From the sequence record OQ873415.1: a DNA stretch of 64,000 nucleotides. One strand, given 5' to 3'. A program made the translations under genes and the position numbers. The stretch is from Escherichia phage PECP20. Of this stretch, positions 1 through 64,000 are shown piece by piece. How positions within the stretch are numbered: position 1 is the first letter of the stretch; every line of letters starts with the position of its first letter. The notes beneath the pieces were generated by a model. The model was not told where the DNA came from. It was given only the letters and a program-made list of their open reading frames with translations, and did not search any database.

Positions 1-133
1 AAACCACTTCAGTGTAGCATAAAAATTCAGTCCAGTTTTTCTGTACAACAACTAAATCAGGATTAAACAGAACATCTTCAAACTCATCGATGTTTGAATC
101 AGTAGTTACGTTTTTAATGATTTGACGTTTCAT
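1..133 (-). CDS. hypothetical protein, partial (N-terminal 44 codons; rest lies beyond window start)
   Basis: ATG at 133-131 preceded by GAGGAG; frame open to position 2; not in ORF track because truncated. Confidence 0.4.
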   Translation of the reverse strand, partial: MKRQIIKNVTTDSNIDEFEDVLFNPDLVVVQKNWTEFLCYTEVV

Positions 134-190
134 AATATTCTCCTCTTGTTTTGATAGGTCTATAGTATCATAGACCATAGTTGTTGTACA

Positions 191-2998: not shown

Positions 2999-4312
2999 TC
3001 AAATAAAATGGACGTCAAAACGACCACGAGTTGTGCCGACATACAATAGCTGTTTAGCTAATTCTGAATCGGCATAATGGATACACGGTGTATAAACAAA
3101 GGCCGTGTCAACAGACATACCCTGAGCCTTATGGAAGGTTGATACAGGTAGCGCCTTCACCTTAGTGAACATGCGTTTAGCATCCCAGAATTTACTCCAT
3201 GGAGCTTTACCACCTTTATTCCAGAATTTGTATGTTTCTGCGGTCTTAGCCAAAAACAAATTGAATTTATAAAGCTCTTCTTCGGAAGAAATAACCTTTA
3301 TATCCTCGCGGACGTATTCTTCATCATCCCCATATGTTTCTACTGTAAGATTCCAGTATCGTATCATATATTCGCCTGAAACACCACGTGCTTTAACGAA
3401 TGTAGACGTTTCTACAGCATCTCGAATACGAACGAATTGCCCGTTATTGAAAAGCATTTCGGTCATATTTTTGCCATCTAGCTTATACGTCTTGGTAAAC
3501 GGCTCTTGTAGAACAATGACTTCGTCTTTAATAAATGGCTTTTCTGTTTCAAGAAGTTTTCGGCGAATAATTGAATTTAACTTGTCCACCGACTTATTTG
3601 TGAATGCCATCATTCGATTTTCGAAAAGGTCTTCAGGAGTTTTAACGACATTAAAATAGTTCATCATATACGATTTAAGGTCTGTATATCCATGAACACC
3701 GTGCCCATCAACTACTTTATCATAAATCCATTTGCCATTACGAATATCAGTCGCAACATCAATAATTGGTGCATTGCTACGTTTAACTTCTGTAAGGTTG
3801 CATTGCACGAAGTCTTTGTGAGTGAAGAAAGGACTTAGATACGCAGTGGATTCGCCTGGGTCTACCGGACGAATCTGGCATCGGTCACCAATTCCAATTA
3901 CTGTGCACCATTTAGGGATACTAGCTAACATTATTTTAAACAGAGAACGGTCACACATTGATGCTTCATCAAATAACAGTACACGACACAAGGCTAAGTC
4001 GGGAACCTTTTTCTGTTCAAATAATACGTTTTCTTCGTATGTAGTTGGGTTGATTTTAAGAATGCTATGAATAGTCGATGCTTCTTGACCCGCAAGTTTG
4101 CTTAGAACCTTTTTAGCAGCATGTGTAGGGGCTGCTAAAATAATACCTGATTCTCCGGCAGAAATAAGGGCTTCAACGATGAATCTAGTAAGGGTTGTTT
4201 TACCTGTACCAGCAGGCCCGTTAATAGTTACGTGATGTTTCTTTTCTTTAATAGCTTTCATAACAACGTTGAAGGCGTTTTTCTGGCCTTCGGTCAAATC
4301 ATCAAATGTCAT
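2999..4312 (-). CDS. dda: Dda DNA helicase (SF1B)
   Basis: 437 aa; near-colinear with T4 Dda as recalled (MTFDDLTEGQKNAFN..., Walker A GPAGTGKTT). Confidence 0.95.
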   Translation of the reverse strand: MTFDDLTEGQKNAFNVVMKAIKEKKHHVTINGPAGTGKTTLTRFIVEALISAGESGIILAAPTHAAKKVLSKLAGQEASTIHSILKINPTTYEENVLFEQKKVPDLALCRVLLFDEASMCDRSLFKIMLASIPKWCTVIGIGDRCQIRPVDPGESTAYLSPFFTHKDFVQCNLTEVKRSNAPIIDVATDIRNGKWIYDKVVDGHGVHGYTDLKSYMMNYFNVVKTPEDLFENRMMAFTNKSVDKLNSIIRRKLLETEKPFIKDEVIVLQEPFTKTYKLDGKNMTEMLFNNGQFVRIRDAVETSTFVKARGVSGEYMIRYWNLTVETYGDDEEYVREDIKVISSEEELYKFNLFLAKTAETYKFWNKGGKAPWSKFWDAKRMFTKVKALPVSTFHKAQGMSVDTAFVYTPCIHYADSELAKQLLYVGTTRGRFDVHFI

Positions 4313-15613: not shown

Positions 15614-15955
15614 TTAAAAGAATTTAAATTTTTTCTTGGTCCGTTCATTAAAAGCTTGTTGTACTTGCATTGTAACACATTTTTCAACATGTGGTGCAAG
15701 TTCTGCTTTTCTGTCCTGGTCAAGAACTGCAAAGTCCATTACGATTTTACCATCAACCCAGTCTAGTTTTGTAATATAGACTATATGATGAGAACCATCT
15801 TCAAGTGTAATCAGAATCTCTTGAATGACATTTTCCATTGCTGAACGGATAATTTTAAGAGATTCATTAAACACTCGTTCTTTGCGAATGTCTTCCCCTT
15901 CCGAAGAAGGGGATTCATCAACGATTTCTAGATTTAAATCATCGAGATTATTCAT
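15614..15955 (-). CDS. hypothetical protein in the gene 40 position
   Basis: In-frame ATG (MNNLDD) at 15955 overlaps uvsX stop by 8 nt; track start 16075 would sit inside uvsX. Confidence 0.5.
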   Translation of the reverse strand: MNNLDDLNLEIVDESPSSEGEDIRKERVFNESLKIIRSAMENVIQEILITLEDGSHHIVYITKLDWVDGKIVMDFAVLDQDRKAELAPHVEKCVTMQVQQAFNERTKKKFKFF

Positions 15956-17120
15956 CGAAATCTTCCATTTCGTCAAGGTCGTTTTCAATATCTGCTGCAG
16001 ACGGAGCATCAGAAGCTTTAACCGGAACTTTAGTTGTTGCTTTGCAATTAATAAGGTCGTTAACAGCGTCATCAACTTCTTTAATAGAAGAGATAGCGCC
16101 TAGTTTATATTTAGTTTCAATTGCATCTCGGAAAGGTTTGTGTTTAAACAACGGTCCCCAGAATTCTACACAATCAGTAGCTTTAGCACGCCACGATTTC
16201 TCTTCACGAATCATTTCACCTGTTTCTTCGTCAAGGAATTCACGAGCATACCAACCAGCTTTAGGCTTAACAACAAATCCAATTTCAGTTGCCATTTCTA
16301 ACAAGCCACTGAATGGATCGATACCGCCGTCAAAATTAACCGTGATTGGGAAAGTAGATTTCTCTTTAACTGTACGAGATTTTTCTGCTTTCAACGTGAA
16401 GTCATAACCGGTCAATTCTGTACCTTCTTTAACCTGACGTTTAGAGATAAAGAATACAGTGTTAGCAGAGTAAAGAATACCTGTACCACCACCCATAATC
16501 TCTTTAGGATATAGTCCGCCGATTTCCATTGCTGTATGGTTGATTGCAACACACGGAATATCTTTAATAGTCAGATAAGGAGTCACAATACGGAACAGAG
16601 ATTTAAGTGCCTTAGCACGAGACATATCACCTACGACTTTCTCGTTCAATGCATCTTCGGTTTCTTTCTTAGATGCAGTATTACCGATTGAATCGATAAA
16701 GATAATAACTTTATCACCGCGTTCAATAGCGTCAAGCTGATTAGTCATATCAACTTTAAGTTGTTCTACAGATTGAATCGGAGTATGAACTACACGGTCT
16801 AAATCAACACCCATTGAACGAAAATAAGATTCTGAAGCACCGAATTCCGAGTCATAAAACAAACAGATTGCATCTTTATATTTCTTCATATACGCTGCAA
16901 CCATAGTCAGCCCAAACAATGTTTTAAAGTGTTTAGAAGGAGCAGCAAAAATAGTTAAGCCTGATTGCAATCCTGCATTCAGAGCACCACCTAGTGCGAT
17001 ATTCAACATCGGAATACGAGTAGGGACTTCATCACGATTATTAAACAGCTTAGACTTAGTCAAGTCTGCAGTCATTTTAGAAGTAGAAGCTTTAATCAGA
17101 CGAGATTTTAAATCAGACAT
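15948..17120 (-). CDS. uvsX: UvsX recombinase (RecA/Rad51 family)
   Basis: 390 aa; near-colinear with T4 UvsX as recalled. Confidence 0.95.
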   Translation of the reverse strand: MSDLKSRLIKASTSKMTADLTKSKLFNNRDEVPTRIPMLNIALGGALNAGLQSGLTIFAAPSKHFKTLFGLTMVAAYMKKYKDAICLFYDSEFGASESYFRSMGVDLDRVVHTPIQSVEQLKVDMTNQLDAIERGDKVIIFIDSIGNTASKKETEDALNEKVVGDMSRAKALKSLFRIVTPYLTIKDIPCVAINHTAMEIGGLYPKEIMGGGTGILYSANTVFFISKRQVKEGTELTGYDFTLKAEKSRTVKEKSTFPITVNFDGGIDPFSGLLEMATEIGFVVKPKAGWYAREFLDEETGEMIREEKSWRAKATDCVEFWGPLFKHKPFRDAIETKYKLGAISSIKEVDDAVNDLINCKATTKVPVKASDAPSAADIENDLDEMEDFDE

Positions 17121-17218: not shown

Positions 17219-17767
17219 TTAACGAGCCCATTTGATGATTTCTGTAATCAAACCATTACGTTCGCTTGCATTAAATCCTATAATTTTGTTAGCACCATCA
17301 TGATTAAGTAATTGATACGTTTGGATTTTGTTATGAATTGCAAACTCTTCAAAATGTGAAATGACTGTATTAAAACCGAATGAAGACAAAGTAATAAGGT
17401 CGTCTTCAAAACTTTCAGTCATTTCATTACGTGTTAAAATAATTGTGAACACATCATGGTTTTGGCAAAGACGAACATAGTCCTGTTCATAAACATCAAG
17501 AACAGAGTCCGCATCTTGCCGAATACGTCCATAAACCCAGTTACTAATATATCCACGGTCTAACAGATAAATCTTAGTAGGGTCTAAATAATTCAACATC
17601 GTTTCGAAACAGCCAACTTCATTTCGAGACTTAACATCGAAACGTCCATCAACTGTTCGTTTAGGAAAATCAATCTTTACATATCTTTCACTAATTTCCA
17701 TTATGTCATTAATGAAAGTTGTTTTACCAGCATTATCTGGGCCGTCTACTAAAATAATTTTAGCCAT
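17219..17767 (-). CDS. thymidylate-kinase-like P-loop nucleotide kinase
   Basis: 182 aa; P-loop GPDNAGKTT; DRGY...Y lid-like motif; occupies part of the T4 beta-gt slot. Confidence 0.7.
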   Translation of the reverse strand: MAKIILVDGPDNAGKTTFINDIMEISERYVKIDFPKRTVDGRFDVKSRNEVGCFETMLNYLDPTKIYLLDRGYISNWVYGRIRQDADSVLDVYEQDYVRLCQNHDVFTIILTRNEMTESFEDDLITLSSFGFNTVISHFEEFAIHNKIQTYQLLNHDGANKIIGFNASERNGLITEIIKWAR

Positions 17768-17768
17768 T

Positions 17769-18668
17769 TTATTCCTCGATTACGACATCTTCGTATTTAG
17801 GTATATTATATGGTGAAGAAATTAAAGCATTAAAGTAGATGAACTCACCAAGACCTGGATGGAATACTTCTTCAGGATTTTCGAAATATTGAATCTTCGG
17901 GCGTCCTTTAAGAATTTGATAGTACTCAGTTTTAGTTGGTTTAAAAATTCGAATCAGCGCTTCTTCAGGATACTTATTTCTGTCGAAGCTATTATTTGGA
18001 TCGGTTATATAAAGCGGTTGACCTAATTGAATTGCACATTCAACCACTTGTTCAAAACGATAACATGGGTCACTAATTCGAAATGGATGAAAAATACCAT
18101 CTAGATGAATAGGAGCCAAATCACCTACAAGACGCTGCATGATGGAAGGACGTATAACTTTCTGAGTTACGATAATCTTATTACCATCTGCACCTGCGTT
18201 AACCAGCACTTCTTTTTGACGTTCATTCAACACGGTAGTTTGAAGTGAACGATTAACTGACAACATATCGGTTTTTAAGAATTCGTCAATATAAAAACGT
18301 TGTTTATTAGGGTCTGCAGTGATATTGAAATTGAATTCTACATCAAAAGCGCCGCCATAACCAGTGATATCTGTGATTAGAAAATCACAATCATAATAAT
18401 CAATTAATGAATCAACCACAAATTCATTTTCAGTCCAGAAATATTTACGAGTGTTATACGCGTTATCTTTATACCATAATGGAACAAACTTAAATTCTGG
18501 GAAAAGACGTTCGCATTCTTTAATATCAGATGCATTACGTGGATATGTAATCACATCACCCGGATTAGCACGGTGCAAATGAAGTTGGAAGTTGCCATCC
18601 TTAAGGATAGCATACTGTCCAGTTTCATAAGACCGCATACTCAAGATTGGTACGCGGAAAATAGCCAT
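17769..18668 (-). CDS. hypothetical protein (299 aa) in the beta-glucosyltransferase slot
   Basis: ORF between kinase and gene 42 homolog; no similarity to T4 beta-gt recognised. Confidence 0.6.
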   Translation of the reverse strand: MAIFRVPILSMRSYETGQYAILKDGNFQLHLHRANPGDVITYPRNASDIKECERLFPEFKFVPLWYKDNAYNTRKYFWTENEFVVDSLIDYYDCDFLITDITGYGGAFDVEFNFNITADPNKQRFYIDEFLKTDMLSVNRSLQTTVLNERQKEVLVNAGADGNKIIVTQKVIRPSIMQRLVGDLAPIHLDGIFHPFRISDPCYRFEQVVECAIQLGQPLYITDPNNSFDRNKYPEEALIRIFKPTKTEYYQILKGRPKIQYFENPEEVFHPGLGEFIYFNALISSPYNIPKYEDVVIEE

Positions 18669-19384
18669 TAGTCAAGGAATCCTTTAACATAATCAAAATC
18701 ACGTTCAAACACATGGGCGCTTACCATGGTATGAGTATAATCACCAACTTCTACACCGCATTCGTTAGCGATATAATGAAGTAATTTTCCTTGGAGATAA
18801 AAATCCAACTGCATAACAACAGCACAGTTCTGAGAACGCATATGACAGTGGGTATAAAGCTTACCATCACGAATATAATAAGTTACTGAGTCAGTACATG
18901 GATATTCAAGTGTTTCGTCCGAATCAAGCAAAGCCTGATCAGAACTTTCTAGAATTTGGAACACAACTCTTCGAGAGTTAGGTTTTTCTTTAAGTTCTTT
19001 TAGAAGAGTTGGTAATTGGGCCGCAATGCGAGGGCCATAGAAAGTGTTGAAGTTCGCCGGCAAAACATCTGATTTTGGTTTAGAAATAAATTTAGCGACA
19101 TTAGGATATGCCTTAAACGCTTCTTCTGCGTTGGTACCACCAGAAATCATAAACTTCCAGAAGTCTTCGGCATATTCATAAGAGATGCGGTTAATACGTG
19201 GGTCGGTCATTTTGAATGATGATGGAGTGTCAACAACTACTGTCATAGACCCAATTTCATTACAACGTCCAATACGAGAATCAGTTACGAATTCGGGGTT
19301 TTCTAAAATTTCACGATTGACTGCTTTAAATGCGGTTTGAAAATCTGCGGCTTTGATATATTTCATTGTGTTATGTTTTCCCAT
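18668..19384 (-). CDS. 42: dCMP hydroxymethylase-like (thymidylate synthase fold)
   Basis: 238 aa; thymidylate synthase-like core (PCTDSV...MRSQNCAVV); syntenic with T4 gene 42 but diverged. Confidence 0.7.
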   Translation of the reverse strand: MGKHNTMKYIKAADFQTAFKAVNREILENPEFVTDSRIGRCNEIGSMTVVVDTPSSFKMTDPRINRISYEYAEDFWKFMISGGTNAEEAFKAYPNVAKFISKPKSDVLPANFNTFYGPRIAAQLPTLLKELKEKPNSRRVVFQILESSDQALLDSDETLEYPCTDSVTYYIRDGKLYTHCHMRSQNCAVVMQLDFYLQGKLLHYIANECGVEVGDYTHTMVSAHVFERDFDYVKGFLD

Positions 19385-19426
19385 GTTTACCTCAATACAA
19401 TTTATTATATACTCAATTCATAAAGC

Positions 19427-19666
19427 TTATTTGAATTTCTTGACAATGTTGATATAACGTAAAGCTTCAGAATCTATACTTCCAAGAACACTATGAAGGA
19501 ATGCATCAGTGTAGTATTCCAATTGAACAGGTTCTTTAATCACTTTAGCCGCTTTGGTTTCAAACAGGCCCATAAGGGCCTTTTTAAGAATTTGTTCGTT
19601 AGTGTTCAGTTTCATAGTCAAAATCTCTTCGTTAAGTTTATAATTAAAACTTTTTCTAGAAATCAT
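19427..19666 (-). CDS. hypothetical protein (79 aa)
   Basis: ORF; 4-nt overlap with upstream gene. Confidence 0.5.
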   Translation of the reverse strand: MISRKSFNYKLNEEILTMKLNTNEQILKKALMGLFETKAAKVIKEPVQLEYYTDAFLHSVLGSIDSEALRYINIVKKFK

Positions 19667-20823
19667 TCCGGGTACCTCAAAGCGTCATCAGAGTTAGTTA
19701 TATCAATAATAGATATGGAGTTTTCTGCTAACCCGTTTTTAGATAATTGACGTTTATAATACCTTTCACAATATGTACACGTTGACCCACAGATTTCATT
19801 AGCACAATCAAAATCTGGATGTCTGAACCACCTTTTTTCTAAAAAGCCATCTAACAAAGAGGTTTCAATATTTACTGTATGTGAAAACTCAGTCTCATTT
19901 TCAAGAGTGAAAATAGTCTCTAAAGGCTTCCACAGTTCTAACAAATTACCTTCAAACTTTTCAGAAGCGTATGCTTCAAGAACTTTCAAAATGTAGTCTG
20001 TGCTACCTGTACGTCCTGAAACTTTGAATTGAGTGATACCAATATCATTATAAAGTTTCAAATCTTGAGGACGAACAAAACGAGTTCTCAACCAGTTAAA
20101 TGGGTCTGTATCACGAGCTTTAATACAGTGCTGCATAGGATATCCATTTAAGGATTTAGCATCATCAGCGGTAACATCAGTACTATGGAAAATATAGCAA
20201 GAGTCACGATAACTACAATGTGTTGTATACCCTTTACCAGCATTAGAACAGAACTCATTTACAAGAACTTCAAATATTATATTGTTCTTATTGCAAAACT
20301 CTGCTGCACGCTTCAGGAAAGAAACTGAACGGTTCTTATGAATTCCGCAACAGACCTTTTTGATGTTATATTGGTCATGTAAGTATTTGATTTGAGTTAC
20401 CGCATCGACATGTAGAATTGTTGAAACTTCAATCTCAATATCTTTATTGACTTCACGAACAATTTCCATAACAACAGGGTTAGCGATAGTAATACGCCAT
20501 ACGCCTATTGACCAAAGATACTGAACATAATCCTGAATAGCTTTCTTCTTCCACTCAACTAGTTCTCTTTTTGAACCAGGATTTATCGTGTTGAGTGTAT
20601 AGTTAAAGCAAATACCTAATTCGTTACAACGTTTAACGTAGTCTTCTAACATCTTTTTGTCAACGTCAGGAAGCCTAAAATCAGGTCTGGCTGCTACAAA
20701 AGCCATTTCTCTTGTAGAGCCATATACTTCGTTTATCAAGCTATTAGGATAGGTTTTATTGAGCTCTACGATTTTATCAAGAAGAGCTAAATCAAAATTC
20801 GTTCCGATTTTAAAAGTATTCAT
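19663..20823 (-). CDS. hypothetical Cys-rich protein, possible Fe-S enzyme
   Basis: 386 aa; C-terminal C-x4-C-x3-C-x-Y-C cluster plus scattered Cys; family not assigned. Confidence 0.7.
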   Translation of the reverse strand: MNTFKIGTNFDLALLDKIVELNKTYPNSLINEVYGSTREMAFVAARPDFRLPDVDKKMLEDYVKRCNELGICFNYTLNTINPGSKRELVEWKKKAIQDYVQYLWSIGVWRITIANPVVMEIVREVNKDIEIEVSTILHVDAVTQIKYLHDQYNIKKVCCGIHKNRSVSFLKRAAEFCNKNNIIFEVLVNEFCSNAGKGYTTHCSYRDSCYIFHSTDVTADDAKSLNGYPMQHCIKARDTDPFNWLRTRFVRPQDLKLYNDIGITQFKVSGRTGSTDYILKVLEAYASEKFEGNLLELWKPLETIFTLENETEFSHTVNIETSLLDGFLEKRWFRHPDFDCANEICGSTCTYCERYYKRQLSKNGLAENSISIIDITNSDDALRYPE

Positions 20824-20879
20824 TTTTTTGCATCTCGCGTTAATTGATGCGATGGTTTTTGCAGGTCTTACTTAAATTA

Positions 20880-21281
20880 TTATAGATTTGGTTTATATGA
20901 TTTAAATGTTTCGAATTCGCCTTTATTCATAAGAGCTTTGAATTCGTCAGGACGCATAGCTTTGTCGTCGATAATCCAATCATATACTGGTTTATGTGTT
21001 AGCAAATTATGGTACTTCAAACCAATGTTTTCCAAGTTCTGAATCAGACTTGGGAGAATGTCAATTGCTATACGACCAGGACCTACCGACTTCATACCAC
21101 GGGCAGTGTAAAGCGTTATGGTATGCCCTGCATCATACAGGGCATTAATGGCAGACACCATTTCGACGTCTGGTTTGAAGTTCACGTAATCACGATTGTT
21201 ATTCCACTCTGTTATACAATCATCGACATCAAAACAAAGATTAAGCATGTTTTCTACACGGTGCATTAGATTCGTTCCCAT
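20880..21281 (-). CDS. HAD-superfamily phosphatase (sugar-phosphate phosphatase-like)
   Basis: 133 aa; N-terminal FDVDDCIT (DxD nucleophile motif). Confidence 0.65.
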   Translation of the reverse strand: MGTNLMHRVENMLNLCFDVDDCITEWNNNRDYVNFKPDVEMVSAINALYDAGHTITLYTARGMKSVGPGRIAIDILPSLIQNLENIGLKYHNLLTHKPVYDWIIDDKAMRPDEFKALMNKGEFETFKSYKPNL

Positions 21282-22951
21282 TGATGAGTGATATCGCCGC
21301 CGATTGGACGATAGGAAACACCAGTTTCTTTATCAGTTAGTACCCATTTACCAGGATTTTTTGTAATCAGAGTAGCCGTTACAGGTTCTGCTACGTCATA
21401 ACTAATAGAGCCGTCTTGAAGTACACGGCCCATGTTACGTAATTGCTTAGTCAGAAGTTCCATACCTTTATAATATGCGGCAACCGCTTTAAGTGGATTA
21501 TTCTTGAAATAACCACCTAATGCAATCCAGATAATTGCTACTGCCAAATGATGATACTCGTTAAACGAACTCATCTTTCCATATTTGTAAACTAATGGAT
21601 TGATGTTAATAGTCAAATTACAAGTTGTTTCATCAATAGTAAACTGACCCCAGGTCGGATTAGCATTGAATTCATCATAACCTGAAACAGCATAAAGCAC
21701 TTTAGCTTCATCATACAATTTTGGCCCGTAAATCTTGGTTTCACCAAAATATCCACGAGGGTCGATAAACTTGACTTCGCCGTTATCGGTAATCATAGTA
21801 TTACTGAAGTTCGGGTCACCATGAATAACAGAGTACTGTCCCTGAGAACGGTTATGATAACGAATAAGATGTTCTAAAGCTTGTTTCAACATTGGCTTCA
21901 GACGTCCAATCTTAGTGTAGTTCACATGTGTGATTTTACCAAATGAATCAATCAATGGCTGAATGCTTTCACAACGATCAATAACTTTCGTATAGAACTC
22001 TTTAGTGAAATCACGGCGAACAGTTTCAGGACTTACAAAATAAGTGTCCGTGCTGAATTTCAGTGCATCTAAAATTGCATCAACAATTTGTGGACGAGCA
22101 AGACTTGATTTGGATTTAATATATTCAAATGCCGGCTTACCTTTAATACGTTCCATTTCAAAATTATTTTCATTTACCGAAACTAACTGAGGAACTGAAT
22201 CTGATTTCACTTTCAAATACCATGAAATCTCATCTTTTTGAAGAGCTCGACCTTGTTCGGTTAACGCGAATTTAGTTACAGTTTCTTCGCCAATTTCAAC
22301 TGCATTAAAACTACGATTCAGTTCACGAACTTCATGAGCCTTTTCAAGTTTAGGCATATCACCTAAATCAATTAGATTCATAAGCTCTGATTTATTGAAT
22401 GCACTGCCGTAAAGGAATTCTACGAAATCACGACCTTTGCAGTATTCGTGAATTTCCTCATCAGTAGAACCCATGTAGAATTCCCAGTCTTTGAACTGAT
22501 AAATTCCTACAACATTACCACCTGTTGAACCTACGTTAGTGATATTTTCACCATCGAAATTATATCGACATTCATCACCCTTAACATAGATTGCGTTAAC
22601 ATTCCAAGACCATGAACCAAAGTCAGGAATAATATCACACCAGTTAACAATTACGTTATGGCCATCTAAATCTTTGTATAATTTAGCAAGAGCATAAGCA
22701 GAACCATACGCTTCATCAACTGTACGAATAGTCACATTGAACCCTTCTTGCTCGCAATAAGCTCGAACAGTTTCAGCAAATTTTGAATGAACTACTACAA
22801 TAATTTCATCTGCGCCAAGGTCAGAATAAATTGTATACAAATTGCTCAGAATAGTGTCTTGTTTATAGTTAACAAGCACCTTAGGAATATGGTGAGTAAT
22901 TGGATATAAACGAGTTGCTAATCCAGCACCAAGAATAACAGCTTTTTTCAT
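21266..22951 (-). CDS. bifunctional sugar-1-phosphate nucleotidyltransferase / APH-type sugar kinase
   Basis: 561 aa; N-terminal MKKAVILGAGLATRLYP (RmlA-like); C-terminal HGDPNFSN...IDPRG (aminoglycoside/choline-kinase-like). Confidence 0.8.
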   Translation of the reverse strand: MKKAVILGAGLATRLYPITHHIPKVLVNYKQDTILSNLYTIYSDLGADEIIVVVHSKFAETVRAYCEQEGFNVTIRTVDEAYGSAYALAKLYKDLDGHNVIVNWCDIIPDFGSWSWNVNAIYVKGDECRYNFDGENITNVGSTGGNVVGIYQFKDWEFYMGSTDEEIHEYCKGRDFVEFLYGSAFNKSELMNLIDLGDMPKLEKAHEVRELNRSFNAVEIGEETVTKFALTEQGRALQKDEISWYLKVKSDSVPQLVSVNENNFEMERIKGKPAFEYIKSKSSLARPQIVDAILDALKFSTDTYFVSPETVRRDFTKEFYTKVIDRCESIQPLIDSFGKITHVNYTKIGRLKPMLKQALEHLIRYHNRSQGQYSVIHGDPNFSNTMITDNGEVKFIDPRGYFGETKIYGPKLYDEAKVLYAVSGYDEFNANPTWGQFTIDETTCNLTININPLVYKYGKMSSFNEYHHLAVAIIWIALGGYFKNNPLKAVAAYYKGMELLTKQLRNMGRVLQDGSISYDVAEPVTATLITKNPGKWVLTDKETGVSYRPIGGDITHQWERI

Positions 22952-22993
22952 GTTGAAGTCCTCATTGGTAAGTAGGTGTATTGTACACTATTC

Positions 22994-23136
22994 TAGTTAA
23001 AGCATTCATACTTTGCCTGTAGACCAATCATAATCCATCCAATTACAAGTGTTGGAATCATTACTGGAGCCGTTAAGCCCCAGTAGATAGTCATGGCAAG
23101 CATCAATAGTAAAAGTCCTATTGTTATTGCTTTCAT
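22994..23136 (-). CDS. small hydrophobic peptide (47 aa)
   Basis: ATGA overlap with stop of upstream SIS gene; hydrophobic; below ORF-track size cutoff. Confidence 0.35.
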
Positions 23137-23768
23137 TGTTCGCCTCGTAACATGGCACCTAGTGCACCACCAGGGTGGAACTTAAGGAAGTCATTAGAGG
23201 TAAATCCACGTTCAGACGAAAGGTTGATAGCAAACGTATCGATAAGCGCTAACAACAATGTAGTGGACATGGTCGGAGCCAGAGAATTCTCATCAACCTC
23301 TACCGCGATGCCTGTACAGAACGTATAATCAAAAAGAGCTTCGTATTCTTGCGGAATGTCAGGGTTACAATGTAACAGAATCTGTTTAACCTGAGGACGA
23401 ATCATACGAAGATGTTTAGCAACACCTATCATTTCTTCAGTCTTACCAGAACGACTGATGTGAACTAATACATCATTAGGTGCAATAAATCCTGCGTCGC
23501 CATGAGAATAATGCCCGGTGTTCAAATACATGCTAGGAATACCTAGTGAAGCAAAAGTCTCGGAAGCTTTAGTTGCGATATTAGCGTTCTTACCAACACC
23601 TGTAATAATTACTCGGCTTTCATAATTACTCAGTCCAGGGCGACGAAGAGTTTCAAGAATAGCATTATATCGGGCAGAGTTTTGACTAATTACTTTAGCC
23701 ATAGTGGCAAGAGATGAAGCTTGTTTTACGATTGCGTCAATAGCGATAGTGATTGGTGTAGTTTTCAT
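23133..23768 (-). CDS. SIS-domain sugar-phosphate isomerase (arabinose-5-phosphate isomerase-like, no CBS domains)
   Basis: 211 aa; ITGVGKNANIATK...HGDAG...ISRSGKT...HPGGALG closely resembles KdsD/GutQ SIS domain. Confidence 0.8.
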   Translation of the reverse strand: MKTTPITIAIDAIVKQASSLATMAKVISQNSARYNAILETLRRPGLSNYESRVIITGVGKNANIATKASETFASLGIPSMYLNTGHYSHGDAGFIAPNDVLVHISRSGKTEEMIGVAKHLRMIRPQVKQILLHCNPDIPQEYEALFDYTFCTGIAVEVDENSLAPTMSTTLLLALIDTFAINLSSERGFTSNDFLKFHPGGALGAMLRGEQ

Positions 23769-23808: not shown

Positions 23809-26520
23809 TCAAAAATCGAACATATCGAACAGAGATGCTTTCTTCTCGTAATCGAGTTTCGCTGCTGATGTGAATCCTTCAAGTGGTTTAATAAATGTCT
23901 TCTCAAGGAGAACAGTGTAGTCCATCCAATGAAGTACGTCGTCTTTAATTAAATCTGTGATTTCAGTACCAGAAGGCCATGCGATACATTTATCACCGAA
24001 CGGGTTTCCATCACGTAAAGGCAGAACGTATACCTTTTCGCCTTCTACAACTTGTGGAGCATCAATATTACCTTTGATAGCTCTGTTATATGTCAGAATT
24101 CCACGAATATGGAACGGGCATTTAGGACCAGGGAATCCACCAACGTCATATTTAGCAATGTTATTCGCAGAAGATACTGACGCGATGCTAATATAATTCA
24201 ATTGACGGAATTCTTTTTCAAACTCTTTAAAATATTCTTGTAATGATTCTTCACCTTCTTGAAGCATACGACGAATACATTCTTTAAGAGCTTTCTGTAC
24301 TGCTTTAGGGGTCGAAGATTTCTGTGTTTCGAGACCCATGATTTTGAGTTTAGGCTCAGCGTATCTGGTTCCTTCCATATCCCACACGTTTAATGCATAA
24401 CGTTTCTTACCAGTCCAGAATCCACCAATACCTTTAGAACCGAGTGGAGGACCAGCAATAGCTTCTCGGTCCATGAACATCAAATGTTGCTTATTATTCA
24501 TGTATTCACACATTTCACGGAAACCTCTATCAATAGCCGGTTCCATACGTTCACGAGCGAACTTATCTAAGAAGTCTACCCAATGGTTGGTATCACGGAA
24601 TTTAGATTCACCAACCTTATCAATAATTTTATCTGCAGATACGTAAATAGAGTCTGTATCACCATAAAGAACGAAAGCTTCACCTTCTGTACCACAAACT
24701 TCGTTCAGATATTCATTAACTTTACGTTCAATCCACTGTAAAGCCATTTGACCAAATGTTGTGATTGCAGTTGCATTACGCAAATCGTAATAACGGAACC
24801 AAACGTTACCAAGTGCACCATAAAGCGAGTTGATGAGCAATTTACGGTTAATTTGTGCAGTCATACCTGCAACTTCAGTACGTTGAGCTCTAAACAACAT
24901 TTCATTAAGAGATTTAGCAGACAACTTTTTAATCTTTTCTTTAATCTCATCGCTGAAGTCGAAACGATAATCAACATCTAATGGTTCGTCAACAGAAAGA
25001 TTAGGATTATGCAACGCCTCTTTAATTATTTCACCATTACGTTGAGCCGCAAGCATGTAACCTTTATGTTCTTTACGTTGATTAAAGACCTTAGTGATTT
25101 CAGTTGGAACTACACCATCACGGTCTTTATAATACATCATGCCATTAGGAGAACAACTGTACACATCTGAAGGACGTTCAGCGATTGCGTTAATATAATC
25201 ATGCAGTGGAGCTACTTTAAACGTTCCTGCTATTGTTTCCGGGCTAATATTCACTTGGCGAATAATACTTGGATACAGGGATGTAAGGTCGAAACTCATT
25301 ACATATTTGTATCGATTTGGAATAGGTTCCTTAACAAAAGCGCCAGGATAAGGTTGAACCGGGTGAGAACGACCTTGTGGAATCACCTTGTTCTGCTCTT
25401 TAAGGCTATTAAAAATAATAGCATCCCATGTTTTAATTGGGCTAAACACAGATTGAATCTGTATCTTAGCATAATAACCCATGTCCAAACTCAAGTTGAT
25501 GAACTGACGCTTAGCATCAATTTGCAATACACGATACACGTCGATAATGTTATAAGAAATATATCGTTGGTGATTGCTTTCACGAAGCTTAGAAATAGGG
25601 CCGTCATATTTCAGTTTACCAACGTTCAATTCAAATTCTGAAATGTAATCCAGAGAATACGACGGTTGATTGGTAAAAGAGAATTTTTTGTAAAGGTCAA
25701 TGTAATCAAGAACAGAGATACCGAACAATGTAATGATTTCACGAGAACCATACATGTTTTCGATAACTTTAACACGAGTTTTACGATGTGGTGATAAACG
25801 TTTTGCTGTGGATTCACCAAAAATATTCTTGATTCTGTTATACACATATGGAATATCAAATGACTCAACGTTCCATCCAGTCAAAATGACAGGAGTTTTC
25901 TGTTGCCAGAAGTTGAGATATTCCATCAACAATTCTTTTTCGTTATCGAACGGCATATAAATGATTTTATCGATAATTTCGGATGGAACTTCATCACCAC
26001 CTTGTTCTTGAAGCTTAGCAGCGATTTCAATAGACCATTCTTCTACATTACCATATGGAGAATTCAATAGATCAAATACGTAGAACCTGTCGTCAATTGA
26101 GTCATAATGAGTGATAGCATCAATCGGATGTTTTGCTTGTGACGGCTCAGGGAACCCATCCGGAGATGTTACTTCGATGTCGAAGTTAGCCACACGAATT
26201 TTTGTATGGTCGTATTTGATTTCATAGTTATAAGTGTCAGACAAATACGCCAATTTGAAATCGTCCATGCCAAGTGCTTCAAGTCCGATATCTTCCATGC
26301 GTTTAATCCATTGGGAGGCATCACGCATATTAGCGAACAACTTACGAGTACACGGCTTACCGTAGATATCGAAATATTTCGTAGCCTGACTTTCTGGACA
26401 ATGTGCAAACAACGATGGCTTATACTCTACTTCACGAGTACGTTCACGGCCATTAGAATCGATGTAACGTTCAAAAATTGAATCACCAATCTGTTCAACC
26501 GTTAAGTAAAATTCTTTCAT
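23809..26520 (-). CDS. 43: DNA polymerase (family B, gp43)
   Basis: 903 aa; exo motifs (FDIEV), polymerase motifs (DxxSLYPSII, YGDTDS); N-terminus matches RB69 gp43 as recalled. Confidence 0.98.
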   Translation of the reverse strand: MKEFYLTVEQIGDSIFERYIDSNGRERTREVEYKPSLFAHCPESQATKYFDIYGKPCTRKLFANMRDASQWIKRMEDIGLEALGMDDFKLAYLSDTYNYEIKYDHTKIRVANFDIEVTSPDGFPEPSQAKHPIDAITHYDSIDDRFYVFDLLNSPYGNVEEWSIEIAAKLQEQGGDEVPSEIIDKIIYMPFDNEKELLMEYLNFWQQKTPVILTGWNVESFDIPYVYNRIKNIFGESTAKRLSPHRKTRVKVIENMYGSREIITLFGISVLDYIDLYKKFSFTNQPSYSLDYISEFELNVGKLKYDGPISKLRESNHQRYISYNIIDVYRVLQIDAKRQFINLSLDMGYYAKIQIQSVFSPIKTWDAIIFNSLKEQNKVIPQGRSHPVQPYPGAFVKEPIPNRYKYVMSFDLTSLYPSIIRQVNISPETIAGTFKVAPLHDYINAIAERPSDVYSCSPNGMMYYKDRDGVVPTEITKVFNQRKEHKGYMLAAQRNGEIIKEALHNPNLSVDEPLDVDYRFDFSDEIKEKIKKLSAKSLNEMLFRAQRTEVAGMTAQINRKLLINSLYGALGNVWFRYYDLRNATAITTFGQMALQWIERKVNEYLNEVCGTEGEAFVLYGDTDSIYVSADKIIDKVGESKFRDTNHWVDFLDKFARERMEPAIDRGFREMCEYMNNKQHLMFMDREAIAGPPLGSKGIGGFWTGKKRYALNVWDMEGTRYAEPKLKIMGLETQKSSTPKAVQKALKECIRRMLQEGEESLQEYFKEFEKEFRQLNYISIASVSSANNIAKYDVGGFPGPKCPFHIRGILTYNRAIKGNIDAPQVVEGEKVYVLPLRDGNPFGDKCIAWPSGTEITDLIKDDVLHWMDYTVLLEKTFIKPLEGFTSAAKLDYEKKASLFDMFDF

Positions 26521-31916: not shown

Positions 31917-32145
31917 TACACGCTTCAGCCATTTTAAGAATAGAGCCAGGAGTATCGTTGTCCATTATATTAAAGCTAAATTCAATAGCCCAGTCGGTGC
32001 AGACATGAACTGCTTTAACTTCATTGCCTTCAACGCGTAATGGCTCAATCCAATACTTGATAGTGTTCTCGAATCCATCATCATCTTTAACGTCTATTTC
32101 AACTTCAAGCCCGAGCCCAGCATTATTAAATTCATCTAAAGTCAT
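31888..32145 (-). CDS. hypothetical protein (46.2 position)
   Basis: 85 aa acidic ORF. Confidence 0.55.
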   Translation of the reverse strand: MTLDEFNNAGLGLEVEIDVKDDDGFENTIKYWIEPLRVEGNEVKAVHVCTDWAIEFSFNIMDNDTPGSILKMAEACIEDAYNDED

Positions 32146-33161
32146 TGTGTTGCCTCAATATAAAGTTCGTTGGAATATTTGACCAGCGCTTCTCTGTCTT
32201 CGTCTGAGATATCTGGAATCGCGTCAATATATTCTTTAATGATATCTTGAAGTGATTTAATCTCGATTTCCTGGTCGTCATCAGATTCAACACTGTTATC
32301 AACTTTAGAAACCATACGAAGAGAGTGAACTACTTTTTCAAGTTCAGATTCAAACTTAGTCAACTCTGAATCAATTTCTGATACTATAACACGTACGGCT
32401 AGATTAGTATAATCAGAATAATTGATTTTGCCTTTAAATGGATAAGTGATTCGTCGATGCCATGTTGTTTCATTAGGAATAAATTCCATACGTTCAACAT
32501 CAGTGTCAAATACCCAGAATCCACGTGGGTCGTTCTCGTCACCTGCAGTAAGGGTCCATGGTGTCCCAATATATTTGACGTTAGCAGCTTCAGAGATTGT
32601 GTGGAAGTGGCCGGACCAGACTTGTTTATAGGTCTTTAAGAAATCAGGTTCAAGCCCATGGGACTTCATTCCTTTATAGAAATAAAAGCCGTTCAGTTCC
32701 CAGTGACCAACACAATACGCAGCAGAAGAAGTCTTGATGTGCTCTAAGATTTCACCTGTATTTTCTTCACACATCCATGGAACGATATCAATCAGACATC
32801 CGTCAAAATCTACAGTAGTTGGATGCTCGTAAATAGTAAAGTTTTCAAATTGAGTTAACAATTCAGAAACAGTGTTAGGTGTTATTGTATTCTTAAACGC
32901 CATGTCATGGTTTCCTATCGTGACATGAACGTGAATGCCTGCTTTAGAAATCATATCAACGATTTCACGATTGAATTCCATTGTACGATGTGTTATTGCT
33001 TTACGGACGTCAAACCAATCACCGTACTGAATCCAAGTTTTAATCCCGTGTTTCTTAGAGTATTCAATTGCTTGTCGAATACCATCACGTTGAATATCTT
33101 GAACCCATGGGTCGTCTTGTTTGACTCCGATATGGAAGTCGCCTAAGTGCAAAATTTTCAT
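32142..33161 (-). CDS. 47: recombination nuclease subunit gp47 (SbcD/Mre11-like phosphoesterase)
   Basis: 339 aa; MKILHLGDFHIG calcineurin-like motifs. Confidence 0.9.
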   Translation of the reverse strand: MKILHLGDFHIGVKQDDPWVQDIQRDGIRQAIEYSKKHGIKTWIQYGDWFDVRKAITHRTMEFNREIVDMISKAGIHVHVTIGNHDMAFKNTITPNTVSELLTQFENFTIYEHPTTVDFDGCLIDIVPWMCEENTGEILEHIKTSSAAYCVGHWELNGFYFYKGMKSHGLEPDFLKTYKQVWSGHFHTISEAANVKYIGTPWTLTAGDENDPRGFWVFDTDVERMEFIPNETTWHRRITYPFKGKINYSDYTNLAVRVIVSEIDSELTKFESELEKVVHSLRMVSKVDNSVESDDDQEIEIKSLQDIIKEYIDAIPDISDEDREALVKYSNELYIEATQ

Positions 33162-33212
33162 ATTATTTCCTCATTAGTTAATTCATTCTATCATCCGTTT
33201 ATAAAGCAAAAA

Positions 33213-33232
33213 AGGAACTCCGAAGAGTTCCT
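33213..33232 (-). terminator. intrinsic terminator-like UUCG hairpin upstream of gene 47
   Basis: Minus RNA AGGAACUC-UUCG-GAGUUCCU followed by UUUUUUGCUUUAU. Confidence 0.5.
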
Positions 33233-33401
33233 ATCCACATAGTACACCGTACAGAGGCTCATTTGAACTTTTAAATCGAATGGGCTTGTACGTAATAGTT
33301 CCTTCGGCTTTAGCTTTATCATAAGACTCTTTAAAACGTCTCATTCTTTCTGCTTTGCCTTTACGGATTTTATCGAAATTTTCAGAAGTCGGGATGTTCG
33401 T
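33231..33401 (-). CDS. small hypothetical protein (about 57 aa)
   Basis: Hand-translated ORF (MTNIPTSENFDKIRKG...) ending at the hairpin; below track cutoff; coordinates approximate. Confidence 0.3.
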   Translation of the reverse strand, partial: TNIPTSENFDKIRKGKAERMRRFKESYDKAKAEGTITYKPIRFKSSNEPLYGVLCG

Positions 33402-33443
33402 CATGCATAAGCACCTCTCAGAAAATACCTAAATCGATTTCTC

Positions 33444-33665
33444 TCATCGTTTCCACCATTTCTTAACTTGAAATGAATCGACCCACACGAGTTGTTTTGG
33501 GTCTGCCTTTACAATAGGCGGACAAATTTCTGTAATAGAACCGTCGTGATATTCCTTTTCAGAAATTTTAACGCAAAGAGGACCACCCAATTTAACGGTG
33601 AACCCTGCGTTCAGCTTCAGACGTTTAAACTTTGTTTGAACTAGCGCCATTAATGATGTCCTCAA
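33444..33665 (-). CDS. hypothetical protein (73 aa)
   Basis: ORF; start uncertain. Confidence 0.45.
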   Translation of the reverse strand: MRTSLMALVQTKFKRLKLNAGFTVKLGGPLCVKISEKEYHDGSITEICPPIVKADPKQLVWVDSFQVKKWWKR

Positions 33666-33948
33666 TAGCCTGACGAGTAGTAACCCACTGGATTTTAATT
33701 AACTTGTCATTATACGGTTGTCGTAGAATATCCCGAGATTTCTTAATAGCATATTCGTAAGCTTCGAAGTTGTTTTGAATTGCTGCTTCTTGAGCATGTG
33801 CATAAAGACGGTTTAGTTCAAAACGATTCTTTTTAAGAATCTTTTCGGATTTTTTACGTGCTTCAGCTTCATTTTTCTTTTGGATTTCTTGTAGCATTTT
33901 AGCTACTGCATCTTCTGCTTCTTTATTTTCAATAATCTCGGTAGTCAT
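33625..33948 (-). CDS. hypothetical protein (107 aa)
   Basis: ORF; charged, helical-looking. Confidence 0.55.
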   Translation of the reverse strand: MTTEIIENKEAEDAVAKMLQEIQKKNEAEARKKSEKILKKNRFELNRLYAHAQEAAIQNNFEAYEYAIKKSRDILRQPYNDKLIKIQWVTTRQAIEDIINGASSNKV

Positions 33949-33949
33949 A

Positions 33950-34165
33950 TTATCTCATTAAATTAAAATAAAAACGTCCATCCTCTTCAATACAGAACTC
34001 GTACTCAACTGGAGTCCCATTTATCGAAAATGACACGTCATGTGGGTTCAAAGGGTCGATGTCAAAATTAATTTTAAATTCACGACCCAACAGTTTTACC
34101 AAATAAGGGATTGCTTCGTCAAAAGGTTCTTCTAAGTAGTTAGAGATGTCAATTGTCATCCTCAT
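33950..34165 (-). CDS. hypothetical protein
   Basis: Internal ATG start chosen to limit overlap with gene 55 3' end. Confidence 0.45.
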
Positions 34166-34706
34166 ATAAAAAATCCAAACTAGGCGAATCGCTAACAACT
34201 TCCTTCTTTTCAGCCCCAGGAGCTTTATAAGCGGATTCTTCATAATGCGTCATTTTATCGTAGATGTCTTGAATAAACGTTTCATCTACCAACGCTACCA
34301 TATCATCGTCATGACTGTCGTAGACATTATGAACGAAGTAACTATATTTCTTTGCAACTTCCTTACGTTCTTTTTTGATACGTTGGACAAAAGCATTAAA
34401 ACAAGCTCGAGTTATGTATGCATGTGGGTTATTGTACTTAGTTTCGTCGAAATTATGAAGTCCCTTAATAGAGGCTTCAATCCCATCTGCAATCATCTCC
34501 TGCTTCCAAGACTGGGTATATCCTGAAAAGTTGAAACGTTTGGACAGGCCTTCGGCGATAAGCATAATTGCTAAACCGATGGTATCATTCTGACGAATAA
34601 TTTTGTTTGGGTCTTTATTATTTAAGAGCTCCTTTTTCCACTCGATTATAGCAGCGAGAAGCTCTTTATTATTCACATAGTTATTTTTAGGTTTTTGTTC
34701 AGTCAT
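34149..34706 (-). CDS. 55: late-transcription sigma factor gp55
   Basis: Near-identical to T4 gp55 as recalled ([11 protein letters not shown]...); ATG at 34706 gives 185 aa; track start 34724 is a TTG. Confidence 0.95.
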
Positions 34707-34778
34707 AAGTACCTCTTGGCTCAATTCATAGGTCTATTATATCATAATATTTAGAGACCTATCTTAAAGCACGAGATA

Positions 34779-35048
34779 CTATCGGAGCAAACAATAAGCC
34801 TGAAACACTTTTTCCATTAAACGTTTGAACTCATGGATATCGATATAAAGCTCAGTAAGACCGGCATTATAAAGAAAATCTAAAAAGTTCTCATGTGTTT
34901 CGTTATAGTCGCCTTCGTTTAATTGAGATACATGAGTTTCCCAAAAACCGACACCTTTAACAAATGGAAAATACGTAACTTTCATAAAGTTGTCGACGTA
35001 AAATTCGCCCAGCTTTTCTTCAGTTATACTGATTCGAGTTAATTTCAT
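34779..35048 (-). CDS. hypothetical protein (89 aa)
   Basis: ORF in small-gene chain. Confidence 0.5.
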   Translation of the reverse strand: MKLTRISITEEKLGEFYVDNFMKVTYFPFVKGVGFWETHVSQLNEGDYNETHENFLDFLYNAGLTELYIDIHEFKRLMEKVFQAYCLLR

Positions 35049-35667: not shown

Positions 35668-35907
35668 TTATTTTTTAAGCATGAAAAGTAAGTAATTTGT
35701 ATCACGTGGAGTAATATCAACACCCATATCAAAGATGCCTTTATAGATTGGGTATTTGTTTTCGGTTGTATCGAAGCTGAAACTATTTCCATCACAACTA
35801 ACAGTAATAGCATCTGTTAAAATGTCATACTCAATCCTAACAATTGAATTCCCAATTTTAACGTCGAGGTGTTTTTTGAATTTGATAAAATCTAATTCTT
35901 GGGCCAT
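35668..35907 (-). CDS. hypothetical protein (79 aa)
   Basis: ORF. Confidence 0.5.
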   Translation of the reverse strand: MAQELDFIKFKKHLDVKIGNSIVRIEYDILTDAITVSCDGNSFSFDTTENKYPIYKGIFDMGVDITPRDTNYLLFMLKK

Positions 35908-36610: not shown

Positions 36611-36859
36611 TCAGAGGTTGATTGATACAATGCGTTTGATAAAATTCACTTCACTTACTGAAAGGTCTTTAAGACCGATTGATTCTAAACGCTGAGTAAG
36701 CGTCAACATTGGGATATAGTCCCATTGAGTTTTAGACATTTGATAAGTACGAACGCCATTAGCAATTTCAACATGCAAATCTGAAATGGTAACGAATACC
36801 GGTCGCTCATCATTAACTTTAAGGGTTAGAACAACTTTCTTTGAATCTAAACTAATCAT
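36611..36859 (-). CDS. hypothetical protein (82 aa)
   Basis: ORF. Confidence 0.5.
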   Translation of the reverse strand: MISLDSKKVVLTLKVNDERPVFVTISDLHVEIANGVRTYQMSKTQWDYIPMLTLTQRLESIGLKDLSVSEVNFIKRIVSINL

Positions 36860-63472: not shown

Positions 63473-63825
63473 CTTATTTCCTTAACGAATTCCATAGCTT
63501 CTTCATATTCATACTTTTTAACAGCTTCATCATACTGAGCTTGGGCTTTTGCGCACTGAACTTTCCATTCTCTTAATCGGGCTCTGTGATGACGGCCTTG
63601 GTGCCAATATCCTACCCAATTAATAGGCATTAATAAAAACGGTACAATAAGTGGTGCGACGAACATTAATGAAAATGCTGCATCAGACGATATAACTTCA
63701 CTAGAATCTAAAACAGCTCCTATAATCATAAAGATTAAAAATGCTAAAGCTAAAATAGGACCAAATAATACTTCATACGGGATTAATTTACGTTTGTATT
63801 CGTAGGCCCAGGGCTTACTTGGCAT
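63451..63825 (-). CDS. membrane protein (124 aa)
   Basis: ATG at 63825 (MPSKPWAY) chosen; overlaps the stop of the partial gene upstream; track start 63876. Confidence 0.5.
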   Translation of the reverse strand: MPSKPWAYEYKRKLIPYEVLFGPILALAFLIFMIIGAVLDSSEVISSDAAFSLMFVAPLIVPFLLMPINWVGYWHQGRHHRARLREWKVQCAKAQAQYDEAVKKYEYEEAMEFVKEIRCKSLNS

Positions 63826-64000
63826 GTATAGGGTTGGCTTTGACATATTCTCTACATTCCATAATAAATTGCTCAAGGATTAAATTGTTAGTGAAATTAG
63901 GACTAACAACCATAGTTTCATAAAGCGCATCAATAGCACTTAAAGCATCAACTCTTTTAAGCAAAGGCTTGCCTTCATACATAGTTTCAGAATCGATGAT
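63815..64000 (-). CDS. hypothetical protein, partial (C-terminal 61 codons; N-terminus beyond window end), FIMECR motif
   Basis: Open frame from window edge to TAA at 63817-63815; C-terminus ...EQFIMECREYVKANPIHAK resembles the ENFIKECR family. Confidence 0.4.
   Translation of the reverse strand: MIDSETMYEGKPLLKRVDALSAIDALYETMVVSPNFTNNLILEQFIMECREYVKANPIHAK

Follow-up and report, generated by a model that had tools for sequence, protein, structure and literature searches.

Escherichia phage PECP20 has no alpha-glucosyltransferase gene (a-gt) between genes 47 and 55, the place at which phage T4 carries one. We examined this interval (positions 33162–34148) within a 64,000-nucleotide (nt) stretch of the phage genome (sequence record OQ873415.1; hereafter the window). 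The explanation that we put forward, and consider very probable, is that PECP20 is a Mosigvirus using an arabinosyl-5-hydroxycytosine pathway instead of glucosylated hydroxymethylcytosine. An alpha-glucosyltransferase would have no substrate in such a phage, and its gene would be absent for that reason. The slot would now hold a single regulatory cassette, left after a proposed excision.

The interval is exactly the gap between the start codon of gene 47 (33161, minus strand) and the stop of gene 55 (34149), and the minus strand carries all of the genes in this part of the window. In T4, the genes lying between gene 47 and a-gt.2 are, in order, 47.1 (46 amino acids, aa), a-gt (400 aa) and mobB (264 aa). 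Where T4 has these three genes the window has a 69-nt spacer (33162–33230), and gene 47 is not separated from a-gt.2 by any gene of about 400 aa. A preliminary description, drawn from the letters of this DNA, had stated that T4 keeps an a-gt of roughly 400 aa in this interval and that here only open reading frames (ORFs) of 57–107 aa occupy it. It was right on both counts: the 400-aa gene of T4 lies between gene 47 and a-gt.2, and the ORFs of the window are homologues of T4 a-gt.2, a-gt.3, a-gt.4 and a-gt.5 (57, 68, 107 and 71 aa, respectively). The largest ORF on either strand is 107 aa, all plus-strand ORFs are 50 aa or shorter, and an Rfam scan of the interval for non-coding RNA gave no match at E ≤ 0.1. 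The comparison of gene maps that the same description proposed is equally clear, with an order identical to that of RB69 and differing from that of T4 by 47.1, a-gt and mobB.

Judged by its sequence, the window belongs to an ordinary member of a well-sampled genus, Mosigvirus, the RB69-like T-even phages. Positions 32100–34800 are 99.7% identical to Escherichia phage p000y, at least 99% identical to 25 records and 95–99% identical to 111 others, and all of those checked for taxonomy (p000y, p000v, mar005P1, RB69 and PNJ-6) are assigned to Mosigvirus, the genus of RB69. The interval itself has 97.9% nucleotide identity to RB69, in which the order 47, a-gt.2 to a-gt.5, 55 is the same. More broadly, the order 45, rpbA, 45.2, 46, 46.1, 46.2, 47, a-gt.2–5, 55 is common to the window, RB69, p000y, p000v and mar005P1. 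T4 has homologues of the flanking genes and of the four a-gt.N genes in colinear order (47–91% aa identity); its region is longer by about 2.2 kb, made up of 47.1, the 400-aa alpha-glucosyltransferase and the homing endonuclease MobB.

That the empty slot might be an assembly error, or a laboratory deletion private to this sequence, has a practically negligible probability, and we found nothing in its favour. In all, 146 phage records span at least 80% of positions 32100–34800 as a single colinear match. Because the layout is common to these 146 independent records, including RB69, p000v, p000y, PNJ-6 and the LF82 series, it cannot be put down to either cause. Relative to p000y, the two ends of the window (1–663 and 63663–64000) are 97.7% identical, as against 99.7% around genes 47–55, and the offset between their coordinates changes along the way, by about 100 nt and by about 1 kb. 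The lower identity at the ends and the shifting offset indicate a genome that is related to p000y as a mosaic, with insertions and deletions, and is not p000y itself.

We searched for glucosyltransferase genes in the window and beyond it. In the window, tblastn with T4 a-gt, 47.1 and mobB as queries gave no match (best E 1.3, 0.38 and 0.29, respectively). Because the genome measures about 170 kb and the window only about 64 kb, we assembled a composite genome from the window plus p000y positions 1–23000 and 86000–169872, which overlap the window ends at 97.7% identity. The queries were a-gt of T4, of a Jiaodavirus and of Erwinia phage Cronus, the beta-glucosyltransferase (b-gt) of T4, and the T2-type beta-alpha glucosyltransferase (ba-gt) of RB14; the methods were tblastn, phmmer with its filters off (--max) and a hidden Markov model (HMM) built from the three a-gt sequences. 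None of the three kinds of gene was found in the composite by these methods (best E 0.04), and 47.1 and mobB were likewise not found in the rest of p000y. For a-gt, phmmer and the three-sequence HMM reached no better than E 0.15 in the composite, and T4 b-gt and RB14 ba-gt, queries for proteins of the PF09198 or PF20691 type, gave nothing there at E < 0.5. Positive controls behaved as they should: T4 a-gt scored 862 bits on Pfam AGT (PF11440), T4 b-gt scored 325 bits on its own family, and ba-gt matched TAGT. At the sequence level, then, a-gt, b-gt and ba-gt are absent.

The best of these scores belongs to a 200-aa ORF of p000y (21234–21836), which matches a-gt residues 18–86 by tblastn (E 0.04, 27.5% identity over 69 aa). 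We judged it a chance match, as the ORF has no Pfam family, its phmmer E value is 0.15 and the alignment extends over only 69 residues. The ORF encodes a hypothetical protein and overlaps the window by no more than its final ~190 nt (about 63815–64000).

The wider distribution of a-gt agrees with its absence here. A tblastn survey of 50,697 phage records with T4 a-gt returned matches in 657, with an identity of at least 90% in 502 of them, 80–90% in 2, 60–80% in 143 and below 60% in 10. The examples listed are Tequatrovirus-type phages in the highest band, and Klebsiella and Raoultella phages in the 60–80% band. No match in this survey was apparent at the identity expected for a Mosigvirus orthologue, in agreement with a BlastP search of RB69 that is reported to have yielded no homologue of a-gt, b-gt or ba-gt (Thomas et al. 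2018, PMC6024577).

What the window does carry is the arabinosyl-5-hydroxycytosine module. Between uvsX and the DNA polymerase gene (43), T4 has segA, b-gt, 42, imm and imm.1; the window has, at 17219–23768, a set of genes whose proteins are 96–100% identical to RB69 ORF045c–055c (Table 1). Three components of an RB69-type module are there: a ThyA-family synthase at the position of gene 42, a GT-B protein adjacent to it, and sugar-donor genes. RB69 and other Mosigvirus phages have the module in the same place, between uvsX and gene 43, with no difference of substance from the window. RB69 DNA contains mono- and di-arabinosylated 5-hydroxycytosine in place of glucosylated hydroxymethylcytosine, as shown chemically (Lee et al. 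2026, PMC13326640; PMC6024577), and phage NP, another Mosigvirus, has the same arabinosyl chemistry (PMC13390438). The ThyA homologue of RB69, gp48, makes 5-hydroxy-deoxycytidine monophosphate (5-hydroxy-dCMP), an activity shown for the RB69 protein itself (PMC13326640). Because the window's ThyA-like protein is nearly identical to RB69 gp48 and only distantly similar to T4 gp42 (Table 1), hydroxymethylcytosine, the substrate of alpha-glucosyltransferase, is not expected in this phage.

By analogy with RB69, we infer that the DNA of PECP20 carries arabinosyl-5-hydroxycytosine. The thymidylate-synthase homologue would make 5-hydroxy-dCMP, so that hydroxymethylcytosine would be neither made nor glucosylated, and GT-B arabinosyltransferases would then add one or two arabinoses. 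One of these would be the 299-aa protein of the module, and the other a homologue of RB69 ORF003c, a gene expected between rIIA and the topoisomerase gene. The nearest relative, p000y, has it at 89802–90902 (99.2% identity to RB69 ORF003c), which would correspond to a place outside the window, about 3 kb beyond its position 1. The corresponding RB69 proteins, gp46:47 and gp3 (ORF003c), have been proposed as the first and second arabinosyltransferases of that phage (PMC13326640).

The presence of GT-B enzymes raises the question of whether a-gt has truly gone. An a-gt orthologue might have moved elsewhere or diverged beyond easy recognition, with the 299-aa protein or the ORF003c homologue, for example, being a re-purposed alpha-glucosyltransferase. 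A Pfam scan of the 299-aa protein returned no family, and a profile of its family gave no significant match to PDB sequences (best E 0.44). An AlphaFold2 model built with 57 homologues has a mean predicted local distance difference test score (pLDDT) of 95.4, and a Foldseek search with this model retrieves MshA and other GT-B enzymes; the model is that of a GT-B glycosyltransferase. Published work on RB69 gp46:47 came to the same results. As a diverged a-gt, the 299-aa protein fares poorly: the profile–profile probability against the a-gt family is 0.5%, and the fold alone is common to both. On these sequence comparisons a moved or diverged a-gt orthologue appears largely refuted, and we regard it as very improbable. 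The GT-B enzymes here are arabinosyltransferase candidates that form part of the alternative module, and they are not a-gt orthologues.

These findings bear on what else the preliminary description had to say. It asked for a search for GT-B glycosyltransferases throughout the genome, and such enzymes do exist (the 299-aa protein, and the ORF003c homologue in p000y), neither of them an orthologue of a-gt. An a-gt homologue elsewhere in the genome, which it had named as the finding that would speak against it, did not turn up in the composite of the window and p000y. It also took the short ORFs to be consistent with a loss of glucosylation in favour of an alternative module. The module half of that reading is borne out, since the module is present at 96–100% identity to RB69 and a-gt, b-gt and ba-gt are missing; the word loss goes a step further, to a history that is favoured but not proven.

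The family of the 299-aa protein, for which Pfam has no model, extends over 342 phage records and 136 protein clusters. Its carriers include Mosigvirus, Dhakavirus and Marfavirus, together with phages of Acinetobacter, Yersinia, Proteus, Providencia, Edwardsiella and Pseudomonas. An alignment of 57 family members has 27 invariant columns, among them R12, K23, D24, R197, D200 and H270.

We can describe the empty slot itself at the level of its regulatory elements. Read on the minus strand from the stop codon of a-gt.2 to the start codon of gene 47, the spacer and its borders are TAG-GAACTC-TTCG-GAGTTCC-TTTTT-TGCTTTA-TAAACGGATGA-TAGAAT-GAATTAACTAAT-GAGG-AAATAAT-ATG. The first element is a hairpin (33232–33213, AGGAACTC-TTCG-GAGTTCCT) with an 8-bp stem and a UUCG loop, which overlaps the a-gt.2 stop codon and is followed by a run of T. 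It was called by a terminator scan (free energy −13.9 kcal/mol, z-score −2.9), and some related records annotate a terminator at the spacer. Next come a MotA-box-like TGCTTTA (33208–33202), 11 nt, and a −10-like TAGAAT (33190–33185), and finally the ribosome-binding site of gene 47, GAGG, at 33172–33169. The box, its spacing and the −10 element have what we take to be the arrangement of a T4 MotA-dependent middle promoter. The spacer thus reads as a predicted terminator hairpin, followed by a putative MotA-type middle promoter, which would drive genes 47 and 46, and the gene 47 ribosome-binding site.

This composite of hairpin, TGCTTTA and −10 element (the cassette) is present at the slot in a single copy in the window, RB69, PNJ-6 and CC31. 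In T4 and the Jiaodavirus it flanks a-gt on both sides: the T4 copy downstream of a-gt.2 is common to T4 and the window, and the second T4 copy, after a-gt and before 47.1, has no equivalent in the window. Cronus has a complete upstream copy and a downstream copy that consists of the hairpin without the promoter part.

The arrangement resembles a known one. Stem-loop elements of the 'promoter-early' and 'promoter-middle' types (PeSL and PmSL) flank genes in pairs, and in the model put forward for them recombination between the copies excises the gene as a mini-circle in a reversible process (Arbiol et al. 2010, PMC2839356; Comeau et al. 2014, PMC4122927). For RB49 and phi1, mini-circles were examined by inverse PCR (PMC2839356). 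Neither paper mentions a-gt. At the sequence level the spacer matches these elements in having a stem-loop terminator directly before a promoter, and the topology around the a-gt slot is also the same, with two flanking copies where the gene is present and one copy where it is absent. The PeSL promoter is of the sigma-70 early type, whereas that of the a-gt cassette looks like a MotA-dependent middle promoter, which brings it closer to the PmSL variant.

The contrast between one copy without the gene and two flanking copies with it leads us to propose that a-gt and 47.1 were excised by recombination between cassettes. An ancestor would have carried a-gt in the slot between two hairpin–promoter copies, and recombination between these copies would have removed a-gt and 47.1 in the ancestry of Mosigvirus, as part of the change to the arabinose pathway or later than it. 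More tentatively, and with rather more doubt than conviction, we suggest that the spacer at 33162–33230 is the scar of such an excision and that a-gt is a mobile, PmSL-bounded cassette in the Tevenvirinae, lost or regained at this junction during co-infection.

A scan of the minus strand of the window for composites of a hairpin and a MotA box found only one convincing element, that at 33208. Two other candidates were set aside because their stems are 4 bp long and a −10 element is lacking. With a single convincing composite, the window is not rich in this exact motif.

Comparison with other genera bears on whether a-gt was lost or was never present. The gene occupies the same slot, between small ORFs resembling a-gt.2 and gene 47, in T4 (Tequatrovirus), Klebsiella phage K65PH164 (Jiaodavirus) and Erwinia phage Cronus (Roskildevirus). 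The slot is without a-gt, as in the window, in Karamvirus CC31, Dhakavirus IME281, Gelderlandvirus STP4-a and Marfavirus PWKp16. An empty slot alone is not diagnostic of the arabinose pathway, because CC31 and STP4-a lack a-gt in the slot yet carry b-gt and ba-gt homologues (PMC6024577, Table 1 of that paper). IME281 and PWKp16 carry a homologue of the 299-aa transferase, as the window does, so that a-gt is missing from the slot in all three of the examined genera that have this transferase. The pattern, in what is a small sample, is compatible with the two systems being alternatives.

A neighbour-joining tree of gp46, gp47 and gp55 from seven taxa places the window as sister to T4, with the other two a-gt carriers further out. 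The a-gt proteins are 66% identical between T4 and Jiaodavirus, 57% between T4 and Cronus and 59% between Jiaodavirus and Cronus. For the same pairs the values are 69, 66 and 69% for gp47 and 66, 66 and 68% for gp46. The a-gt identities are therefore similar to, or slightly below, those of its neighbours, which fits vertical descent in place and not recent lateral transfer. On the identity of the slot and this proportionate divergence, we favour, without regarding it as proven, the reading that Mosigvirus lost a-gt once its lineage had separated from Tequatrovirus.

The opposite history is that Mosigvirus never had a-gt. The empty slot would be ancestral, and Tequatrovirus, Jiaodavirus and Roskildevirus would each have gained a cassette-bounded a-gt at the same hairpin–promoter element. 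The patchy distribution speaks for it, since the slot is empty in Karamvirus, Dhakavirus, Gelderlandvirus, Marfavirus and Mosigvirus, and in cyanophages genes 47 and 55 are close enough to be annotated under one match. T4 a-gt is also accompanied by a homing endonuclease gene, mobB, and the PeSL model is explicitly reversible and allows the insertion of mini-circles (PMC2839356). However, this history requires three independent insertions at one exact junction. Moreover, recent lateral transfer normally leaves the transferred gene more similar than its flanks, and the a-gt identities are no higher than those of gp47 and gp46. We consider that a-gt was never present in Mosigvirus to be unlikely, though well short of negligible.

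In IME281 and STP4-a, the sequence just upstream of gene 47 (about 3360–3504 of the stretches compared) closely resembles T4 47.1 and has the same overlap with the gene 47 start; no coding sequence is annotated there. Gene 47.1 is absent from the window, RB69, CC31, the Jiaodavirus and Cronus.

Several points count against loss by excision in a phage with arabinosylated DNA. The gene is present in three of the eight genera examined and absent in the other five, and on the seven-taxon tree parsimony is tied at three losses versus three gains; because of this tie, it is only slot identity and proportionate divergence that carry the argument for loss. Given how short and diverged the cassette copies are, no crossover can be placed within them, and in Cronus only the hairpin of the downstream copy is present. 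The whole-genome search was made on a composite with p000y, which is 97.7% identical at the window ends, and not on the phage's own genome. Finally, the DNA chemistry of PECP20 is extrapolated from RB69 and phage NP.

Table 1. Features of the window around the a-gt slot and in the arabinosyl-5-hydroxycytosine module; identities are of amino-acid sequences.
Feature	Position	Strand	Length (aa)	Similarity	Remarks
uvsX	15948–17120				Left of module
Nucleotide-kinase-like protein	17219–17767	−		98.4% to RB69 ORF045c	Weak P-loop matches only in Pfam
Predicted GT-B glycosyltransferase	17769–18668	−	299	Homologue of RB69 gp46:47	Candidate arabinosyltransferase 1; adjoins the gene 42 homologue, in the T4 b-gt slot
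Thymidylate-synthase-family enzyme	18668–19384	−		98.7% to RB69 ORF048c (gp48); 24.8% to T4 gp42	Gene 42 position; Pfam Thymidylat_synt, E 1.9e-15
Peptidase-U32-like protein	19663–20823	−		99% to RB69 ORF050c	Pfam Peptidase_U32, E 7e-11
Putative sugar phosphatase	20880–21266	−	128	98.4% to RB69 ORF051c	
Nucleotidyltransferase–kinase fusion	21266–22951	−	561	99–100% to RB69 ORF052c and ORF053c	Proposed synthesis of the nucleoside diphosphate (NDP)-arabinose donor
SIS-domain, arabinose-5-phosphate isomerase-like protein	23133–23768	−		96.2% to RB69 ORF055c	Pfam SIS, E 9.6e-10
DNA polymerase gene (43)	23809–26520				Right of module
Gene 47	32142–33161	−	339	75.8% to T4 gp47, full length	SbcD/Mre11-like recombination endonuclease subunit; left border of interval
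a-gt.2 homologue	33231–33404	−	57	75.9% to T4 a-gt.2; tblastn E 3e-24	
a-gt.3 homologue	33444–33650	−	68	70.8% to T4 a-gt.3; tblastn E 1.5e-29	
a-gt.4 homologue	33625–33948	−	107	57.7% to T4 a-gt.4; tblastn E 2.5e-32	
a-gt.5 homologue	33950–34165	−	71	46.6% to T4 a-gt.5; tblastn E 1e-14	Shares 17 nt with the end of gene 55
Gene 55	34149–34706	−		90.7% to T4 gp55	Late sigma factor, RNA polymerase sigma factor in related records; right border of interval

All four small genes of the interval fall in PHROG families of unknown function. The a-gt.2 homologue belongs to Pfam DUF5486 (E 4.5e-28) and phrog_2140, a family of unknown function; the a-gt.3 homologue to phrog_1648 (E 5.9e-34), with no family from a Pfam scan; the a-gt.4 homologue, which is 100% identical to RB69 a-gt.4, to DUF2654 (E 1e-27); and the a-gt.5 homologue to DUF5491 (E 5.8e-13). 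Two of them appear in longer form in the list of ORFs. The a-gt.3 frame is listed at 33444–33665 (73 aa, from an upstream TTG), and the 68-aa form from ATG is the one annotated in related records; the a-gt.5 frame is listed at 33950–34243 (97 aa, from an upstream ATG), and the 71-aa form is as annotated. Upstream of gene 55, minus-strand ORFs at 34779–35048, 35668–35907 and 36611–36859 match RB69 ORF072c, ORF075c and ORF079c and have no T4 counterpart. These RB69-specific ORFs alternate with homologues of 55.1 to 55.6, in the manner of a typical hyperplastic region.

Among the other proteins of the module, the RB69 counterpart of the nucleotide-kinase-like protein, ORF045c, has been modelled as thymidylate-kinase-like, and a sugar phosphatase function has been proposed for ORF051c (PMC13326640), whose 128-aa homologue in the window has no family in a Pfam scan. 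The 561-aa fusion has an N-terminal Pfam NTP_transferase domain and weak matches to kinase families at residues 308–409. The p000v record labels its homologue of the SIS-domain protein arabinose 5-phosphate isomerase. The genes for the 299-aa and 561-aa proteins are intact single ORFs in the window, and the 2003 RB69 record (AY303349) splits them into ORF046c/047c and ORF052c/053c. These splits are known sequencing errors (PMC6024577; PMC13326640), and the intact ORFs of the window provide independent support for that view. The space between genes 42 and 43, which holds imm and imm.1 in T4, holds sugar-donor genes in the window (19385–23768); the gene that the p000v record calls 'immunity to superinfection' is found elsewhere, at 19528–19776 of the p000v stretch compared, the equivalent of about 12.4–12.6 kb of the window. 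A small ORF at about 22996–23103 is homologous to RB69 ORF054c, which the RB69 record likens to the T4 42–imm intercistronic region.

Much of this biology is already published. Arabinosylated cytosine in RB69-like phages has been in the literature since 2018, as has the lack of glucosyltransferases in RB69 (PMC6024577), and in 2026 the modification was refined to 5-hydroxycytosine with one or two arabinoses, together with its pathway and gene cluster (PMC13326640). Our only addition, a small one, is the cassette anatomy of the empty slot and the comparative argument for loss, and beyond correct annotation the absence of a-gt matters little. In the laboratory, the DNA of this phage should be assumed to be arabinosyl-5-hydroxycytosine DNA. 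Such DNA and that of T4 are not equally sensitive to restriction enzymes, type IV restriction systems, CRISPR and DNA glycosylase defences. The repeated elements of hairpin and MotA promoter that bound the a-gt slot offer a concrete, testable route for gene loss or gain. If a-gt is indeed a mobile cassette, the type of DNA modification would be switchable by cassette exchange.

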